The position numbers and the translations under genes were made by a program. DNA of 6,293 bases from a virus (Duplodnaviria; Heunggongvirae; Uroviricota; Caudoviricetes), in the IMG/VR virus record IMGVR_UViG_2671180921_000022, positions 1 to 6,293 of that record; one strand, given 5' to 3'. This document shows, piece by piece, positions 1-6,293 of the stretch. Position 1 is the stretch's first letter. Every line of letters starts with the position of its first letter. The notes beneath the pieces are model-generated. The model was not told where the DNA came from and did not search any database. It was given only the letters and a program-made list of their open reading frames with translations.

Positions 1-696
1 TCACTTCGGGTAAGGCTGAATCCTGGATAGCTTGGTGTTTAGGCGCTTTTTTGCACGCTTATTCAGGAATCTGATGTAGCGATACTGATTAAATTTGTGT
101 ACCACGGCCCGCTCCTTATTAGCCCGCAAATACTCGCCTCGTTGCCCTCCGCGCTTAATCGCGTTCATCGCTATCTCGTGATACCACTCGCCGTCCAGCT
201 CGTAGAACGTGCTTTCATGGCTACCAATAAAATCAAAATTCGACGCCTGATATACCACGCCAGCACGTCCGCAGCGTTCGTCTGCAAAAGACTGAACCCA
301 CTCAACTGACGGATACAGTAACCTGATAACTTTCAGCGCGTAGCTGATAGCCCGTGATTCAGAATTGCGGGGCATGTCGTCGTGTAGCCACATGCGGTTC
401 AGTTCCATGTAACCCCGGTTATCTGTTTCAAGCACGACACGACGCCCTGAGTTGGGATTAAGGGCATATCCCCACTGAAGAACGCCAACCAGATCACGTC
501 CGCTGAATACGCCCAGATGCAGGTAGGAGTTATTCACAAAACGGCGGGAATAATGCTTTGTCTGAATGATTGTGCGGGCCAGCCAGCAGGATATGGTTTC
601 AACGCGCAACTCCTTTGAACCATAGCCGACAATCCGGCCTTCATACTCAATAACGCAGGGTTTTGTCAGAATGCGTGATTTCTTCTCTTTTCCCAC
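1..696 (-). CDS. mom: Mom-like DNA modification protein (Mu Mom family); 231 aa if started at GTG 696..694, stop TGA at 3..1
   Basis: Long minus-strand ORF directly downstream of, and overlapping by 50 nt, a clear com homologue. The track ORF (1..738) opens with TTG; the first in-frame ATG is at 726 with no Shine-Dalgarno. GTG at 696..694 has GGAG 7 nt upstream and gives 231 aa, which is the length I recall for Mu Mom. Protein identity beyond synteny and size is from memory. Confidence 0.75.
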
Positions 697-832
697 AATA
701 CAGCTCCGTGGGATGCTCTTTGGCATTCGATATGACAATGTAACGTTTACAGCGAGGGCATTTAATTTCTATATGCTTAAAACCTCCTTTAAACAGTAAC
801 TTATTGCAGTTCTTACAGCGAACAGAGTCCAT
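647..832 (-). CDS. com: Com zinc-finger translational activator of mom (61 aa)
   Basis: ATG at 832..830 preceded by AGGGAG. Product [61 protein letters not shown] has CxxC-x15-CxxC and is near-identical in pattern to remembered Mu Com (..[22 protein letters not shown]..). The track ORF start at 865 is a GTG with no RBS and is less likely. Confidence 0.85.
691..713 (-). promoter_or_regulatory. Translation-inhibition hairpin sequestering the mom start codon and Shine-Dalgarno
   Basis: Minus-strand RNA 713..691 is UCCCAC-GGAGCUGUAUU-GUGGGA: a 6-bp stem (713-708 pairs with 696-691) and an 11-nt loop. GGAG is in the loop and the GUG start forms the 5' end of the 3' arm. This matches the Com-relieved occlusion mechanism known for Mu mom. 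Confidence 0.5.
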
Positions 833-905
833 GATTCTCCCTGTGTAATAACCAGATACGACCACCCGGAGGGCTGGGGATATTTAACCACACATGATGT
901 AAAAC

Positions 906-933
906 GACGATCGATATGATGGTATCGATCGTC
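906..933. promoter_or_regulatory. Perfect 11-bp inverted repeat with 6-bp spacer carrying two Dam (GATC) sites; candidate methylation-sensitive operator for the com-mom promoter
   Basis: GACGATCGATA (906-916), spacer tgatgg, TATCGATCGTC (923-933); the arms are exact reverse complements. GATC at 909-912 and 927-930. The element lies 74-101 bp upstream of the com ATG in the only sizeable non-coding gap of the window (833-973). Confidence 0.5.
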
Positions 934-973
934 ATAATCTATACAAAACGCTTAATTATTAACCTTTTTTGAG

Positions 974-1444
974 TCAGCTTTCTGCGGCACTCTGAGAAAG
1001 AGGCTCTGCTATCAGGGACAGCAGTCTCTCTGTCTGTTTTCTGTTTTCGAGGGTAATTGCGCAATCCCGTTTCACCTCCTCTGCATATAATCTGACACTT
1101 TCCGCACTTTTTTGTATCTGCATTGCAATCTCTTCGAACTTTTTAAGAGATTCAGGGCGCAAATCTGCATCTGTCACCGACAAAAAATCGTTAAGCGAAC
1201 CGTCCTGTGAATCTTCATAAACGCGAATGATGCCGATTTCTGAAAGGCGCTGTGCGCTCTGTGTCAGGCGAACACTGTACACGCCCGGCAGAACGGGGAA
1301 GTCGTACTCCCCGCTCTGTGTAGTGACGTGGCTGAAAACACCTTTCAGAATCCCTGCACGGTTGTGCAGGGAGGTCAGCGTGATGGTTGTGCCGCCCAGC
1401 GGTTCTCCTGTGGGCGTTTTAATCACACCTTTAAGCTGCGGCAT
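974..1444 (-). CDS. Orphan side-tail-fibre N-terminal domain protein (lambda Stf N-terminal domain-like, about 156 aa), lacking shaft and receptor-binding parts
   Basis: The product aligns by eye to the remembered lambda Stf N-terminus: LKGVIKTPTGEP vs ISGVLKDGTGKP, GVYSVRL vs GQYSVIL, IRVYEDSQDGSLNDFL vs ITVYEDSQPGTLNDFL, DLRPESLKKFEE vs DARPEVLRRLE. The ATG at 1444 has GGAG 7 nt upstream and aligns with the lambda Stf start; track ATGs at 1486 and 1471 are alternatives. The ORF overlaps the tfa stop by 14 nt. Confidence 0.7.
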   Translation of the reverse strand: MPQLKGVIKTPTGEPLGGTTITLTSLHNRAGILKGVFSHVTTQSGEYDFPVLPGVYSVRLTQSAQRLSEIGIIRVYEDSQDGSLNDFLSVTDADLRPESLKKFEEIAMQIQKSAESVRLYAEEVKRDCAITLENRKQTERLLSLIAEPLSQSAAES

Positions 1445-1961
1445 CGGGATGCTCCGGCCAGCTGATGGCATTAAGGGAGGCTTCATCAGTAACGGCGCTT
1501 AAATCCAGCGCTTTTACCGCTTTGATATACGCCATCCACTGCGCAAGACGAGCTTTGTCGTCATCACTGATGACGCCCAGCTCCAGCTCGGCTTTCCAGT
1601 CGGAGGTGATGTCCTTTGCTTCAGTCAGCAGATGCTGGCGTTGTTTTTCTGCCAGTTGCGAATAATCAACAGGAACCGGCAGCACTTCGCCGTCTTTGTA
1701 ATACCAACTGGCTTCAATGCCAAAGCCTTCCGGCAGTTCATCAACTTCCACAATGGTGAAGCCTGCCGGATAAAGACGGGACACGTCTTCTGCCATTGAA
1801 TAAATCACGCCGCTTTCAGGGTGAATGCACAATTTGTATCTCTTCGTGAATTTGTCCATGGATTCATAAAAATCCTGTCCGTCTTCACTGCGGAAATACT
1901 GAATGCCTTCACCATAAGGCATATCTTCAGGGTAGTAACGCGTAACATTTCTGAGTTCCAT
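1431..1961 (-). CDS. Tail fibre assembly chaperone (Tfa; Mu U / P2 gpG family), about 176 aa
   Basis: Product has the characteristic Tfa C-terminal region (..LGVISDDDKARLAQWMAYIKAV..SWPEHP). ATG at 1961 is preceded by AAGGAG (minus-strand TTAAGGAGAAAATAATG). It lies immediately downstream of the fibre gene. The track start at 1997 overlaps the fibre ORF and has no RBS. Confidence 0.85.
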   Translation of the reverse strand: MELRNVTRYYPEDMPYGEGIQYFRSEDGQDFYESMDKFTKRYKLCIHPESGVIYSMAEDVSRLYPAGFTIVEVDELPEGFGIEASWYYKDGEVLPVPVDYSQLAEKQRQHLLTEAKDITSDWKAELELGVISDDDKARLAQWMAYIKAVKALDLSAVTDEASLNAISWPEHPDAAA

Positions 1962-1975
1962 TATTTTCTCCTTAA

Positions 1976-2785
1976 TTAACCTGATACGGTGCGCCATGAA
2001 CCATTGATATAAATCTGCGCGGATTTGTAATACACACCACCGATGTTATCCGCCGAACTTCTTCCCGTATCCTGGACATAAATGCCTGATAACTGACAGC
2101 CTGAAGGCGCGCGAAACGTCCAGGTGATTTCGTTACCGCCCGGGTTGTAAAACACCTCATTGGTGTACTGAAAATCACGCACAGCGCCGGAATCGGTGGT
2201 GCTGATGGTGATATCACTGGTGCCATCAAACAGCACATTGTTAATCCTGCGTGCATTCTGAAGGCGGGTTGCCGTTCCGGCGTTGCCGCTGATGTTGCTG
2301 ATGGTGATATCCGAAGACAGGGCCAAACCGTTGACCCTGCGGGTATTCGGTACAGCACTATTGGCTTTATTTACCGTGTCACCTAATGAAAGTGCGTTGA
2401 TAATTTCACTGGCCGTGGTTTTTCCAAGAATACCGCGCACAAAAGCACTGAGCGGCGTTAACGCCATTGTGTCTTCGCTGGTAAAATACGGGAACGTGTT
2501 ATTCTCACCGGTTAATCCGGCAATGGCACCGGCTGAACCACTGTTCATAATAAACAGCTTTTTCAGGGCTGCCATTATCTGACCGGTATCTGCTTTATCC
2601 GGCGTTATTCCGGCTTCTTCGAGAATTTTCAGCAATTCAGACTGAATGATATTAAACCAGTCCGGCCCCGGATAGGTGGGCGGAATACCGTTCCCGCCTT
2701 CGGTGAAATAAAGCGTTGTCTGGCTTGATACTGGCGCAACAGGCGGCATCACCGGCACGCCGGTATTATTATCAACATGATACAT
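1976..2785 (-). CDS. Short tail fibre protein (269 aa): tail-collar-like N-terminus, P2 gpH-like C-terminus
   Basis: ATG at 2785. N-terminal ..YPGPDWFNIIQSELL.. resembles the conserved baseplate-attachment region of Mu S / P2 H fibres. The central ..FPYFTSEDTMALTPLSAFVRGILGK.. and the terminal ..YINGSWRTVSG resemble remembered P2 gpH (..FPYFTGNDVASLATLTKVGRDILAK.., ..YINGTWYNVAQV). Stop TAA at 1978..1976, followed by the tfa RBS. Confidence 0.8.
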   Translation of the reverse strand: MYHVDNNTGVPVMPPVAPVSSQTTLYFTEGGNGIPPTYPGPDWFNIIQSELLKILEEAGITPDKADTGQIMAALKKLFIMNSGSAGAIAGLTGENNTFPYFTSEDTMALTPLSAFVRGILGKTTASEIINALSLGDTVNKANSAVPNTRRVNGLALSSDITISNISGNAGTATRLQNARRINNVLFDGTSDITISTTDSGAVRDFQYTNEVFYNPGGNEITWTFRAPSGCQLSGIYVQDTGRSSADNIGGVYYKSAQIYINGSWRTVSG

Positions 2786-2827
2786 ATCTGATTATTTCTC
2801 CTGATATTGTGTATACAGAGATATTTA

Positions 2828-3871
2828 TTATTCAGTGGCGCTCCGTGCCTGATTAAGCAACTCCGCTGAGAAGGTCAGCTCCCCCCTTGCGAAAGGCGTT
2901 TCTCCGCCCGGTTCCGCCATAAAACTCTGTGAGACTGTGGTCCAGCTGTTTGTGTCGTATTGTGCGCCATCCTCTGTAATCATTGCGCCTTCATGGCTTC
3001 CGTTTTTCACTTTCCAGGCCAGACAGTTATTGGGTGCGTCTGCGCTGCGGTAAGTAACAGAAGCCATTACAGCAATGACATTGTTGTTACTGTTGTCCAC
3101 CGCACCAAACGTAACCTGTGCAGCCTCCGTGGAGGGTGAGAGCATCAGGTATCCGGCATCACTGTCAGATGTGTTCAGCCCCGTCACAATATCTTTGTCC
3201 AGCGAGTTTCTGGCACTCCCGCCGGAGAACGCCGTTACCGGACTGTAGCCAACCTCAACACTCCCCAGCAGTGATGGTGAGGCATCATAGTTATCACCAT
3301 ACGGCAGCGTCGCCAGGTACATATCACCCAGCATCACAGTACCGGATACACCTGACGTGAAAATACGTCCGGTATCGCCAATCCCCACCGTAACCTGGTC
3401 CACGTCATTAAAGTAAACGCGTCCGACTAACGAGCGGTTACAGTACAGGCTGGCTGACGCCCGATTACTTTCACTTAGCGCCACAAAAATCTCAAAATAG
3501 TAACTGGCTGCCTCATCAGGATACGGTGTGGTGAATGATTTACCGCCGACACGGATATACGAAGATGAATTTTTCCCCCCTTCACTTAATGTCAGACGAA
3601 AACCCATCTGTACGGCAGAGCCGCTTAAATCAGGAAGCGGAATATAAAGATAAAGAGGTCCCTGCGGCTGAAAAATCAGCCCTGTTCTTTCTGTTGTATT
3701 AACAACCTGTGTGCCACGACGAACGGATACGACAGAAGAGTTGTACATGTCACTGATAAGTGTGACGCCGTTTTCGTTCAGTGCGGAAAGAATGTTTGCC
3801 GGAGAGGGGGTCTCACACAATTCCTCATCCGCCGGAATTTGTCGGAAGCTTTCGAGTTTTATGATATTCAA
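2828..3871 (-). CDS. Hypothetical protein in the tail-fibre locus (347 aa from TTG 3871; 362 aa from TTG 3916); possible accessory receptor-binding or fibre-associated protein
   Basis: Uninterrupted minus-strand ORF with no in-frame ATG near its 5' end. TTG at 3871 is preceded by AAGGAG at 7-nt spacing, whereas TTG at 3916 overlaps the gp48-like gene and has no RBS. Ends in tandem stops TAA TAA (2830..2825). Ser/Gly/Thr/Asn/Tyr-rich like phage fibre or receptor-binding domains, but I recognise no specific family. Confidence 0.6.
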   Translation of the reverse strand: MNIIKLESFRQIPADEELCETPSPANILSALNENGVTLISDMYNSSVVSVRRGTQVVNTTERTGLIFQPQGPLYLYIPLPDLSGSAVQMGFRLTLSEGGKNSSSYIRVGGKSFTTPYPDEAASYYFEIFVALSESNRASASLYCNRSLVGRVYFNDVDQVTVGIGDTGRIFTSGVSGTVMLGDMYLATLPYGDNYDASPSLLGSVEVGYSPVTAFSGGSARNSLDKDIVTGLNTSDSDAGYLMLSPSTEAAQVTFGAVDNSNNNVIAVMASVTYRSADAPNNCLAWKVKNGSHEGAMITEDGAQYDTNSWTTVSQSFMAEPGGETPFARGELTFSAELLNQARSATE

Positions 3872-3893
3872 AGTTACTCTCCTTTTATTTTTG

Positions 3894-4817
3894 CTATTCG
3901 GATATGACCACAGCAAAATGCAGTCCCGGATGATTAATCATTAACGGTTCACTGGTTCTGTTGACTGTCTGTAATTGCATACTGTTAACCGGTACGGGGG
4001 AGCCTGTTCTGTATCCCACCTGCATCTGCGCACTGGTAATTGTCATGGGTTCAGTTGTTGGTTGACCTGAATGCAATTGTGCCCTGCTGAGCATCAGCGG
4101 TTCACCTGCCAGTGCCGGAACAACCGCAAAATGCATTCCAGCACAGTTAATCGCTACTGGATCCGCAGCTTTGTATCCGGCCTGAACCCAGGTACGGTTA
4201 ATGGACAGTGGTGGACCGGAAAGAGATTCATCATCACCATCTGTGTAAAAAAACTCATACCCTGTTCCGCCCATGCGGTAATTTTTCAGGAGACATTCCA
4301 GTTCGCGGGTCCGTTCGCTGATTAATGGCGTCATGACGTCATCAATACAGGTAAACCGACCGGCATCGTTGTCCGGGACTTCCACTTTCAGCAGCCAGCG
4401 ATACCGCGCCGGATGCAGCGGATACATGCAGTCGCGCAGGCAGTGGTGCGGCAGAACGGCCGTCACCTTTATGGTGAAGCCCAGCGCCGCAGCAGCAGCT
4501 TCAATCTGCCAGGTTGCCAGCCCGCCCTTGCGGCGGTATTTCTCAACCACAGCACGGCGACGGGCTTCCGTTGTGGTGGCGGCAATTCCGCATTCCGGCA
4601 GCGCCAGATACTGCTCCCACTCCGGCAGCAACTGGAGCGTGGTTTCCGGGCGCATCTCCACATGCAGACGCGAGGCGTCGTATTCAACGCGGGTTAAACG
4701 CTCTGCAAGCGCCCTTAAAAAACGGTTTAAATCTGCATCGTTATCACGCGGCCATGCCTTACCCCGTGGCATGACCTGTTGCAGTGCGGTCAGCCATTCC
4801 GTCACGCTGTGAGCCAT
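3894..4817 (-). CDS. Mu gp48 / P2 gpI-like baseplate-tail protein (DUF2313/YmfQ-like N-terminal about 190 aa) with an extra C-terminal repeat region of about 115 aa
   Basis: ATG at 4817. N-terminus MAHSVTEWLTALQQVMPRGKAWPRD... is typical of gpI/gp48-family proteins. Position is right after the baseplate-J-like gene, with a 16-nt overlap. The C-terminal region carries about five degenerate 15-aa repeats. Confidence 0.8.
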   Translation of the reverse strand: MAHSVTEWLTALQQVMPRGKAWPRDNDADLNRFLRALAERLTRVEYDASRLHVEMRPETTLQLLPEWEQYLALPECGIAATTTEARRRAVVEKYRRKGGLATWQIEAAAAALGFTIKVTAVLPHHCLRDCMYPLHPARYRWLLKVEVPDNDAGRFTCIDDVMTPLISERTRELECLLKNYRMGGTGYEFFYTDGDDESLSGPPLSINRTWVQAGYKAADPVAINCAGMHFAVVPALAGEPLMLSRAQLHSGQPTTEPMTITSAQMQVGYRTGSPVPVNSMQLQTVNRTSEPLMINHPGLHFAVVISE

Positions 4818-5878
4818 GTCACCACCCCGATGGTGATAAGCTCATCCACATCACTGGTGGTGTCTTCCCCGATGTTGAGGAAGTAATCCGTGATACCGGA
4901 CGTCATACCGATGGCCGTGCGCAGCGAGGACACCGGCAGCATCTGACCGGGGGCCAGCGTTTTCTGTAATGCGGTCAGGTTTGCCCGGACGGCGTTCCTG
5001 TTCGCCTGGCTGTCCGGTGTCAGACGGATGGACAGGTCGACCTTCTTCAGCCTGACCTGTACCGGCCAGACCTCGATGCCGCCCGGTTTGCCCACCATCA
5101 CCCCGGTGGCCGGGTGTTTGTGGCAGAACAGATACTGCTCCATTGTCTTCAGGTCGTCCCGTGTGGGGATAATGTCTTCACGGTCATCATAAAGCCATGC
5201 CAGCCCGACCGTGCCGGGGCCGTGCCACGCATCCCACGCCCACGCGCGGCTGACACCCGGCACTTCACGCGCCCAGATGACGTAATCATGCAGTGCACCG
5301 CCCACCGGGGGATTGCGGCGCACATACAGCAGACGGTCCAGCAGCTCTGCGATGGATTCGATGTCTGCGCCACCGGTGATGCCACTTTCAGTCACCGCGC
5401 CTGTGCTGCCCGTTCCGGGTAGCGGGGATAACAGAGTGAGCACGGCACCGGCAGCAAGATTGCCCGCCACACCGGCTTCTTCAGCCTGCACGATGACAGT
5501 GACCTCGCCGTCCTGTACCTCGCCGGATGTGAGTACCTGATACACCTGATTCGTGTCGGACTGCATCCGGGTTTCTGCCGGGATGGGGGACTGACTGGTG
5601 AAGGTCACCGGTCCGCTGGCAAAGGTGGCCTGCTTGCGGATAATCCCTTCATACGTTGCTGTTTTGATAATGGTTTCATCATCAGACGCGGTGGACGGAA
5701 TAATCTGGTCTTTAATCCAGCTCTGATGGTCGTATAAATCCCGGACCTGACTGCTGAATGACACGTTCAGCGCCTGCTCAACACTGACAGGCGGCAGCTT
5801 TTGCAGGCCGAGTTCATACGCAATATCTTTTTCGCCGTCGGCAATCAGTTTGCCCAGCGTGGGGATTTCATACGGCAT
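4802..5878 (-). CDS. Baseplate J-like protein (Mu gp47 / P2 gpJ family), 358 aa
   Basis: Long ORF between gp46-like and gpI-like genes; the size matches Mu gp47. ATG at 5878 has GGGAGG about 9 nt upstream and overlaps the gp46-like stop (TGA 5870..5868). The track start at 5911 is a TTG deeper into the upstream gene. Confidence 0.8.
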   Translation of the reverse strand: MPYEIPTLGKLIADGEKDIAYELGLQKLPPVSVEQALNVSFSSQVRDLYDHQSWIKDQIIPSTASDDETIIKTATYEGIIRKQATFASGPVTFTSQSPIPAETRMQSDTNQVYQVLTSGEVQDGEVTVIVQAEEAGVAGNLAAGAVLTLLSPLPGTGSTGAVTESGITGGADIESIAELLDRLLYVRRNPPVGGALHDYVIWAREVPGVSRAWAWDAWHGPGTVGLAWLYDDREDIIPTRDDLKTMEQYLFCHKHPATGVMVGKPGGIEVWPVQVRLKKVDLSIRLTPDSQANRNAVRANLTALQKTLAPGQMLPVSSLRTAIGMTSGITDYFLNIGEDTTSDVDELITIGVVTWLTA

Positions 5879-6293
5879 TAATGGTGGCCTCCCATCGGCG
5901 GGTGATTTCAATTGTGAGCGTGGTTTTGTCCGGGCGGGTTAACACCACCTGAAAGGCAATACGGTCAGGGACGATGATGCTGGCCGTGACGGTGGCGTTA
6001 CGGGCGTAACCGGCCCGCAGCAGCGGTTGCATGGACAGCCGCGCGTAATCTTCCACACGCAGGCGGACATCTTCCGTCAGCTTTTCACGCTCAAGCAGCC
6101 ACAGGCGGGAACCCCACGAAAAATCACTGTACGTGTCGCCCGGCCAGCCGCGCGGGTCGCCGGAACCATCAGGGATGACATCATCGTCATCAGCACGGGC
6201 ATCGGTGAAAAGGCAGATAAGAACCTGAGTGACCAGCCCCTCATCCAGCGAGAGGCCGTTATGGGTGACGGTGATGTCACCCCGTGAGAGCAT
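5868..6293 (-). CDS. Mu gp46-like baseplate protein (GP46 family), 141 aa; the start codon is the last triplet of the window, so the true 5' end cannot be confirmed
   Basis: Product contains ..DDDDVIPDGSGDPRGWPGDTYSD..GSRLWLLEREK.., matching the motif pattern I recall for the phage GP46 family (acidic stretch, GWWGD, GSRLWLL.REK). ATG at 6293..6291 gives a length typical for the family, but no upstream context is visible. Confidence 0.7.
   Translation of the reverse strand: MLSRGDITVTHNGLSLDEGLVTQVLICLFTDARADDDDVIPDGSGDPRGWPGDTYSDFSWGSRLWLLEREKLTEDVRLRVEDYARLSMQPLLRAGYARNATVTASIIVPDRIAFQVVLTRPDKTTLTIEITRRWEATINAV

Follow-up and report, generated by a model that had tools for sequence, protein, structure and literature searches.

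Organization of the com-mom locus

The window, i.e. the whole stretch of 6,293 nucleotides analyzed here (positions 1 to 6,293 of IMG/VR record IMGVR_UViG_2671180921_000022), has all of its sizeable open reading frames on the minus strand, and the last two of them are com and mom. The com gene (832..647, minus strand) starts with ATG at 832, ends with a stop codon at 649..647 and encodes a zinc ribbon protein of 61 amino acids with cysteines C6, C9, C25 and C28. The mom gene (696..1, minus strand) starts with GTG at 696 and encodes 231 amino acids up to a TGA stop at window bases 3..1; the TCA read at bases 1-3 is the reverse complement of this stop codon. Both genes lie on the same strand and overlap by 50 nt (696..647). 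Bacteriophage Mu (AF083977) has the same two genes (Mu_52, Com; Mu_53, Mom) in the same order and on the same strand, with an overlap of equal length and the same GTG start. The placement of the two genes, their overlap and the mom stop at the first triplet, as given in the first-pass annotation, agree exactly with the ORF list and the sequence.

According to both the ORF list and the sequence, the open mom frame spans 738..1 on the minus strand, and an alternative start in this frame, the ATG at 726, would extend the product to 241 amino acids. This longer form is used by gene callers and in the RefSeq annotation of the closest relative, a prophage of E. coli AF34, and the residue numbering in a 2026 paper on Mom follows it as well (PMC13219725). 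The GenBank record of Mu gives mom from GTG (231 amino acids) and places its ribosome-binding site, GGAG, 7 nt before this start. The Shine-Dalgarno sequence of com, GGGAG (837..841, minus strand), is located 4 nt 5' of the ATG and aligns with AGGAGG of Mu com.

Upstream of com, 141 nt of non-coding sequence (833..973, minus strand), within which the conserved cassette starts near 942, separate the gene from an ORF of 170 amino acids (974..1486, minus strand) that forms the left junction of the cassette. This ORF is a truncated, N-terminal tail-fibre fragment: it matches Pfam phage_tail_N (9e-25) and covers no more than the N-terminal ~130 positions of PHROG tail-fibre profiles with lengths of 296-1210 positions, and its counterpart in AF34 is a RefSeq pseudogene without C-terminus. 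None of the remaining tail and baseplate ORFs of the window is disrupted; a search of NCBIfam gave no matches for seven window proteins. The cassette had initially been described as not fused to the tail operon, which is correct for the reading frames; at the level of transcription, however, no terminator is predicted on the coding strand between 974 and 832, and read-through from the tail genes is possible.

Identity and integrity of Com and Mom

By every sequence test applied, the two genes are members of the Com and Mom families, and the unit they form is a Mu-type com-mom operon. Com shares 74% of its residues with Mu Com in an alignment over 61 amino acids with one single-residue gap, and its C6, C9, C25 and C28 align with C6, C9, C26 and C29 of the Mu protein, i.e. 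the four zinc cysteines are kept, in agreement with the identification proposed earlier from the sequence alone. The protein matches the Pfam family Zn_ribbon_Com (PF10122) with an E value of 2.5e-7 (30.5 bits; cutoff 22.9) and PHROG 13819 ('gpCom control of modification') with 4e-43 over positions 1-62 of 62; a comparison of Com with solved structures gave nothing significant. Exactly the same Com sequence is found on at least 1000 public contigs, and the protein is listed at NCBI as a "Com family" regulator.

Alignment with the Mu proteins, the check proposed in the first-pass annotation, is decisive for Com as well as for Mom, which is 97% identical to Mu Mom over 231 amino acids; a lack of significant similarity to the Mom family, named there as grounds for refutation, was thus not seen. 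Mom matches Pfam PF25680 over the full length of the profile (positions 1-202 of 202; 2e-75, 253.4 bits, cutoff 27.1), PHROG 1384 ('Mom-like DNA modification protein') with 4e-83 and the crystal structure of Mu Mom (PDB 8bv8) with an E value of 2e-154. The 241-amino-acid form is identical to WP_074430524.1, which is named 'protein mom' or 'Mom family adenine methylcarbamoylation protein' at NCBI. The com-mom pair is real, and it is already known and annotated in public databases.

Mutational work by Silva et al. showed that, in the numbering of the 241-amino-acid form, R111, S124, D149 and R151 are essential for Mom activity, that W48, H58, Y59, Y159 and W181 are strongly needed, and that deletion of a helix-turn-helix (HTH)-like insertion at about residues 175-209 abolishes activity (PMC13219725). 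All nine of these residues (W48, H58, Y59, R111, S124, D149, R151, Y159, W181) are present at the same positions in Mom of the window, and the HTH-like insertion aligns to 8bv8 without gaps and with two substitutions, at residues 186 and 198. Altogether, there are ten substitutions compared with the 241-amino-acid Mu form, none of them at a residue tested as important and most of them in the dispensable first 10 residues and in the C-terminal tail. With respect to the Mom family as represented by PF25680 and 8bv8, the window protein, a full-length profile match with identical active-site residues, shows no notable difference. In the 214 codons outside the overlap with com, dN between the mom genes of the window and of Mu is 0.014 and dS is 0.416 (dN/dS 0.034), which indicates that mom is under strong purifying selection.

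Translational control of mom

In Mu, Com is essential for the translation of mom (PMC3378877). In the window, the mom mRNA can form a translation-inhibition hairpin (692..712, minus strand), in which CCCAC (712..708) pairs with GUGGG (696..692), the loop contains the mom Shine-Dalgarno sequence GGAG (707..704) and the 3' arm includes the GUG start codon (696..694). This hairpin (CCCACGG/UUGUGGG) is present in both the minimum free energy (MFE) and the centroid folds, for the window and Mu alike. Directly upstream, at the position occupied by the Com-binding site in an alignment with Mu, there is a small hairpin (713..726, minus strand) with a stem of 4 bp, AUGC (726..723) and GCAU (716..713), and a loop of 6 nt; it contains the alternative AUG. 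The small hairpin is found in neither the MFE nor the centroid fold of the window, and three of its four pairs are formed in the fold of Mu. The mRNA segment GAAUGCC-AAA-GAGCAUCCCACGGAGCUGUAUUGUGGG (728..692) as a whole aligns with its Mu counterpart. According to the established mechanism in Mu, Com binds mom mRNA at the position of the 5' hairpin and opens the inhibitory hairpin (Wulczyn & Kahmann 1991; Hattman 1999).

Both helices can pair in each of 15 distinct sequence variants of this region. The changes seen in them are confined to replacements of A-U by G-U in the upstream stem in five variants and of C-G by U-G in one; loop positions 2-4 of the upstream hairpin vary freely, the loop of the inhibition hairpin ranges from 11 to 17 nt, and the candidate Com target GAAUGCC-NNN-GAGCAUCCCAC is invariant. 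At the locus L005, an insertion in the loop lengthens the inhibition stem to 10 bp according to manual pairing (not folded with a tool). Compensatory double changes occur in neither helix among the 15 variants, and shuffled sequences pair equally well. Since the variants were collected with a pattern that requires the arms, and since these arms encode protein in two frames as well, what supports the hairpins is qualitative conservation and not covariation. The folding energy of a region of 76 nt is no better than that of shuffled sequences (z = 0.30), and window positions 1-1100 do not match any Rfam family. A structure that sequesters the Shine-Dalgarno sequence and the start codon of mom in a hairpin is predicted by these models to be retained as in Mu.

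The region upstream of com

The comparison of regulatory regions is based on an alignment of 36 distinct sequences from upstream of com-mom, drawn from viral and genomic collections; a scan for Mom among genome representatives contributed only 4 loci, and more were obtained from the viral collection. Relatives of the same type as the window ('window-type', i.e. with two GATC sites) are 82-90% identical to it over 111 nt, from a TATAG motif (at ~942) to the com ATG, and 34-44% identical beyond the TATAG motif.

The 5' part of this region contains what might be a Dam/OxyR-type module (906..942, minus strand) of the form ATAG-N7-CGAT-N7-ATCA-N7-CGTC, with GATC sites at 930..927 and 912..909 that are 18 nt apart. 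We read it as a match to the OxyR tetrad consensus. The two GATC sites align with the first two of the three GATC sites of Mu Pmom at the same spacing; the third Mu site reads CATC in the window. The arrangement CGATCG-N12-CGATCG is present a single time in the window and in none of 200 shuffled sequences, and GATC is strongly depleted in the window (4 observed, two of which are the pair upstream of com; 24.5 +/- 4.5 expected), which shows that the pair is not due to chance. Pmom of Mu is controlled by OxyR and Dam, and Dam, OxyR, C and Fis all act at the Mu mom promoter region (PMC3378877).

The remaining part differs from Mu, where the three GATC sites are accompanied by the C-activator site TTATGCCCCAATAA, which overlaps the -35 region, by a T6 run and by the -10 hexamer TAAGAT. 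The window promoter region is 11 nt shorter; according to the alignment, the Mu C-binding site (TTAT-N6-ATAA) is absent upstream of com and replaced by TGTGGTTAAATATCC, and the T6 run is absent from this region as well. All window-type rows of the 36-row alignment share a conserved core (862..890, minus strand), whose function can only be conjectured and which comprises TGGTTAAAT (890..882, minus strand), ATATCCCC (883..876, minus strand) and a small palindrome GCCC-TCC-GGGT (874..864, minus strand). The first of these elements resembles an extended -10 and has the conserved form TGnTTAAAT, which could be an extended -10. The second is one mismatch away from ATAACCCC, which is found at a fixed position in the Mu late promoters PI and PP, the corresponding oligonucleotides for Plys and Pmom reading ATAATCCC and ATAACCAC, respectively (PMC4461284). 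In the window, ATATCCCC is located 17, not 20, nt from the best -10-like hexamer, TATCTG. A sigma-70 promoter scan gave no match on the coding strand; the sole match lies on the opposite strand at 911-938.

The first-pass annotation had described a dedicated regulatory region in front of the cassette. This description is borne out by the conservation of 111 nt next to unrelated flanks and by the two GATC sites homologous to those of Mu; it does not extend to the promoter itself, as the third GATC site, the C site and the T-run of Mu are absent and no promoter could be defined. A search for an activator site shared between com and other late promoters of the AF34 relative yielded two candidates, both of which were rejected: the 21-mer TGTGGTTAAATATCCCCAGCC is confined to the region in front of com, and the frequency of TTAAATAYCCCC, allowing 2 mismatches, does not exceed chance expectation.

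The right end of the prophage and its host phage

A look-up of the exact Mom protein led to an E. coli contig (DBKKNH010000021.1, GCA_052924615.1; locus L003), of which 16.7 kb were covered and whose positions 2434-8726 are 100% identical to the window. In this contig, the mom stop is followed by a GC-rich hairpin (GCAGCGG-TAAAT-GCCGCTG) and TTTT, homologous to the sequence after Mu mom, and then by three direct repeats of TATCTTGAAnnAnTT; a terminator scan flags the hairpin only on the strand opposite to mom. Homology to Mu ends ~45 nt past the mom stop, and E. coli tauC/tauB/tauA sequence, matched at 100% identity, begins 126 nt past the stop. The prophage, located at the start of tauC, thus ends on its right side with com and mom, and the placement of the pair behind the tail genes, at the right prophage end, is confirmed.

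Several features of this locus are shared with Mu: the translation-inhibition hairpin and the hairpin next to it, the spacing of the first two GATC sites, the hairpin after mom and the location of com-mom at the right end of a transposable prophage. Window positions 1-822 are 88-89% identical at the DNA level to Mu, SfMu, D108 and Mu-like Yersinia phages. However, Mu has gin and the invertible G segment upstream of com, where the window has the truncated tail-fibre gene instead; neither a gin gene (Pfam) nor long inverted repeats, and hence no gin-type invertible tail-fibre segment, were found in the window. In addition, the terminal repeats of the source prophage differ from Mu attR, and the gp47 and gp48 homologues of the host phage are only 38% and 32% identical to those of Mu. 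Judged by these sequences, the host phage is not Mu itself but a distant Mu-like prophage into which the cassette has been inserted mosaically.

The same gene order across the whole window, at 90% DNA identity, recurs in a prophage shared by E. coli AF34 and 22 further complete genomes of this species (e.g. NZ_OZ547096.1, mom WP_072126634.1). The AF34 relative is a full 33-kb Mu-like prophage that encodes a Mu-type repressor domain, a MuA-type transposase, the B ATPase, Kil, Gam, GemA and Mor. It carries the same truncated tail-fibre fragment, its com and mom genes are annotated as Com and Mom by RefSeq, and its com gene and upstream region are 99.5% identical to the window. Identity over window positions 1-4103 is only 88.6%. 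The two prophages differ at their right ends: that of AF34 is of the Mu type and located next to yehQ, whereas the source prophage of the window has TATCTTGAA-type repeats and lies in tauC. The AF34 prophage ends in a Mu-type attR (...CGTTTTTCGTGCGCCGCTTCA).

Proposed function and transcriptional control

Taken together, it is very probable that this region is a functional orthologue of the Mu com-mom operon at the right end of an E. coli Mu-like prophage. [quoted passage not shown] During late lytic growth, one transcript would span com and mom, and Com would be translated first, using its own GGGAG and ATG. On the naked mRNA, the mom GGAG and GUG would be locked in the CCCAC...GUGGG hairpin and mom would not be translated; binding of Com, by means of its four-cysteine zinc ribbon, to the small hairpin directly 5' would then open the inhibitory one and allow synthesis of Mom. 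As a dimer with a GNAT fold, Mom would transfer glycine from Gly-tRNA(Gly) to adenine N6 in the phage DNA, and the resulting 6-NcmdA would block many restriction endonucleases upon infection of a new host by the progeny. Transcription probably responds to Dam methylation, as it does in Mu, through the two GATC sites within the OxyR-like tetrad. RNA binding by Com, control by OxyR and Dam, the identity of the promoter and the actual modification of DNA are parts of this scheme that we infer by homology.

A different view of one part of this scheme deserves attention. The genes might be intact and yet lack an activator-dependent promoter of their own; transcription would then be due to read-through from the tail-fibre genes or to a constitutive or extended -10 promoter gated only by OxyR and Dam, with Com-dependent translation as the principal safeguard. 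The control of transcription is the only point on which this view departs from the scheme above, and we consider the alternative possible, if rather doubtful. The lack of a coding-strand terminator between the tail-fibre fragment and com is consistent with it, as is the loss of the Mu C box, the T-run and the third GATC site. The activators present in this group of phages also point in this direction. The AF34 prophage has a single Mor/C-family gene, whose product is 59% identical to Mu Mor and 32% identical to Mu C; tblastn detected no second copy, and a C gene is thus missing from this closest complete relative, whose right end differs from that of the window's prophage. The lysis and head-protease operons of AF34 are preceded by GAAGCCGGTAAATCCGGCTTTTTTT (GCCGGTAAATCCGGC-T7), a near copy of the Mor site of Mu Pm; no such site is present upstream of com, and the Mor-type dyad GCCGG-N5-CCGGC, which precedes both of these operons in the AF34 relative, is absent there. 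A cross-tabulation of viral contigs gave a similar picture: seven contigs with a Mu-type com upstream region carry the Mu C gene, and all seven cross-matchable contigs with a window-type region carry AF34-type Mor, 0 of 7 being found with the Mu C query, a search with a single protein that detects close relatives only. Which regulatory version a phage carries thus goes with its type of activator. On the other hand, the conservation of the 111 nt upstream of com despite unrelated flanks argues for a functional element that travels with the genes, and a single mismatch separates ATATCCCC from the ATAACCCC core of the Mu C-dependent promoters.

Far less probable is a loss of function, with com-mom persisting as a silent relic of a prophage in decay. 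Such decay would be in keeping with the truncation of the neighboring tail-fibre gene, and the source prophage was seen only in part. However, com and mom are full length with intact catalytic and zinc-binding residues, the low dN/dS of mom and the integrity of the remaining tail and baseplate ORFs are difficult to reconcile with loss of function, the closest relative is a complete Mu-like prophage, and an identical Com is widespread among public contigs. Least likely of all, Mom might differ from Mu Mom in its aminoacyl-tRNA donor, target base or sequence context, for which the ten substitutions could be invoked, in particular A186T and E198V (Mu numbering) in the HTH-like insertion proposed to contact DNA, but overall identity is 97%, every residue tested as important is unchanged, and most of the substitutions fall in the dispensable N-terminal 10 residues or in the C-terminal tail.

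The comparison with Mu gives two E. coli prophage genes their proper functional label, that of a counter-defence enzyme by which progeny phage DNA evades many restriction systems, held in check by a translational switch. Prophages equipped in this way can cross restriction barriers, which bears on host range and on the potential for horizontal transfer of E. coli strains. Nothing new is learned about Mom or Com themselves.

The cassette as a mobile module

The genes beyond the TATAG motif vary with the genome: the window has the truncated tail fibre and Mu has gin, and other relatives have a DUF4376 gene or different genes at this place. Together with the end of homology shortly after mom, the alignments delimit a com-mom cassette of ~1 kb that has sharp boundaries and is found in several different genomic contexts. 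Its G+C content of 47-50% compares with 59-65% for the baseplate genes.

Conceivably, a lineage of Mu-like phages that has Mor only and lacks C acquired com-mom as a self-contained mobile module of ~1 kb, whose promoter was subsequently rewired by loss of the C box, the T-run and the third GATC site and by gain of TGnTTAAAT and GCCC-N3-GGGC, and in which transcription responds to a trigger unlike the C/OxyR/Dam control of Mu; we regard this scenario as tentative. The locus is of modest comparative interest in this respect: com-mom is transferred as a whole between transposable phages that are only distantly related, and its regulatory region exists in at least two versions, each associated with a particular type of activator in the host phage, which makes it a natural experiment on the control of a toxic gene after horizontal transfer. 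Versions with two GATC sites are also present in two other, divergent lineages (L005 and L049). Finally, DNA identity to Mu is 67% in the first 35 codons of com, where synonymous sites are saturated, versus 92% in mom, which indicates that the cassette is itself mosaic inside.

Mosaic structure of the cassette and its junction

The com-mom cassette is itself a mosaic. When the com region (window 647-832) was compared with the corresponding part of the Mu locus (L001 762-950), codons 1-35 of com showed 67% DNA identity to Mu with synonymous sites saturated, whereas the identity rises to 87% in the 3' part of com and to 92% in mom. This difference suggests either a recombination point inside com or a far earlier divergence of the com/promoter half of the cassette. 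Beside the cassette, a 170-aa ORF (window 974-1486, minus strand) matches tail-fibre profiles of 296-1210 positions and corresponds to just the N-terminal ~130 residues of such a protein. The ORF has an overlap with the final part of the tail-fibre assembly gene, and its counterpart in an E. coli relative is annotated as a pseudogene. Its position is probably that of the scar left by the recombination that brought the cassette into this phage.

Translation of com and mom

The product of window 647-832 is labelled 'Com family DNA-binding transcriptional regulator' by NCBI, a name that is misleading because Mu Com is described in the experimental literature as an RNA-binding translational activator (PMC3378877). 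For mom, gene callers use an alternative ATG at window 724-726 (minus strand), which yields a 241-aa Mom. In the hairpin proposed as the Com site, this codon belongs to the 5' arm; it is not accompanied by a Shine-Dalgarno sequence, and several relatives have GUG at this position. The GTG at 696 is preceded by GGAG 7 nt upstream and is the more plausible mom start. Mu Mom is still active without its first 10 residues (PMC13219725).

The mom translation-inhibition hairpin was also compared in more distant com-mom cassettes, namely those of L005 (~2330-2390; a Scandinavium MAG), L049 and L051. Here, the loop is enlarged to 14-17 nt and the CCCAC/GUGGG arms are unaltered; in L005 the inserted bases pair and lengthen the stem to 10 bp (manual pairing).

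Depletion of GATC sites

The window shows a strong deficit of GATC, with 4 sites observed (positions 492, 909, 927 and 4160) versus 24.5 +/- 4.5 expected from shuffles, and GATC is the only one of the 16 palindromic tetramers in the window with a deficit on such a scale. Half of these four sites form the regulatory pair upstream of com, and in the L005 and L049 cassettes the GATC sites likewise number two only. The closest complete relative, the Mu-like prophage of E. coli AF34, is likewise poor in GATC (48 observed versus 128-148 expected), and its host flank has no such deficit (38 versus 25-39). That enterobacterial phages avoid Dam sites is already known (reported by McClelland in 1985).

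Prophage ends, activators and baseplate-side genes

At its right end, which lies immediately past coordinate 1 and so falls outside the window (positions 8727-8852 of the E. coli source-contig locus L003), the source prophage differs from Mu attR. This end contains three direct repeats TATCTTGAA(T/A)(A/G)A(A/C)TT and two copies of TGCGCGCTT as candidate binding sites for the transposase. The AF34 prophage, although 90% identical, terminates on the right in an almost exact copy of what we take to be the Mu R-end, and the two prophages therefore probably have different transposase/end specificities. In the AF34 prophage, the sequence GAAGCCGGTAAATCCGGC-T7, which is almost identical to the Mor site in Mu's middle promoter, is found before the lysis and head-protease operons (L004 15091-15120 and 22652-22681). 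Together with the presence of one Mor-like gene and a search of this prophage for a C gene that found none, this suggests a two-tier (Mor-only) cascade, unlike the Mor-then-C cascade of Mu.

Between gp48 and the tail fibre lies a 362-aa ORF (window 2828-3916, minus strand; called as 347 aa in the source contig) with no counterpart at the equivalent position in Mu. It has no match in Pfam or NCBIfam, its sole match being PHROG 8291 (1e-162), a family of unknown function. The homologue of the baseplate wedge protein gp48 (window 3894-4817, minus strand) comprises 307 aa compared with 180 aa in Mu. Its additional C-terminal ~110 aa contain an internal repeat with the motifs EPLM(L/I) and (M/L)HFAVV, whose copies are 71 aa apart and which is visible in the DNA as a 44-nt direct repeat of 70% identity (window 3907-3950 and 4120-4163).
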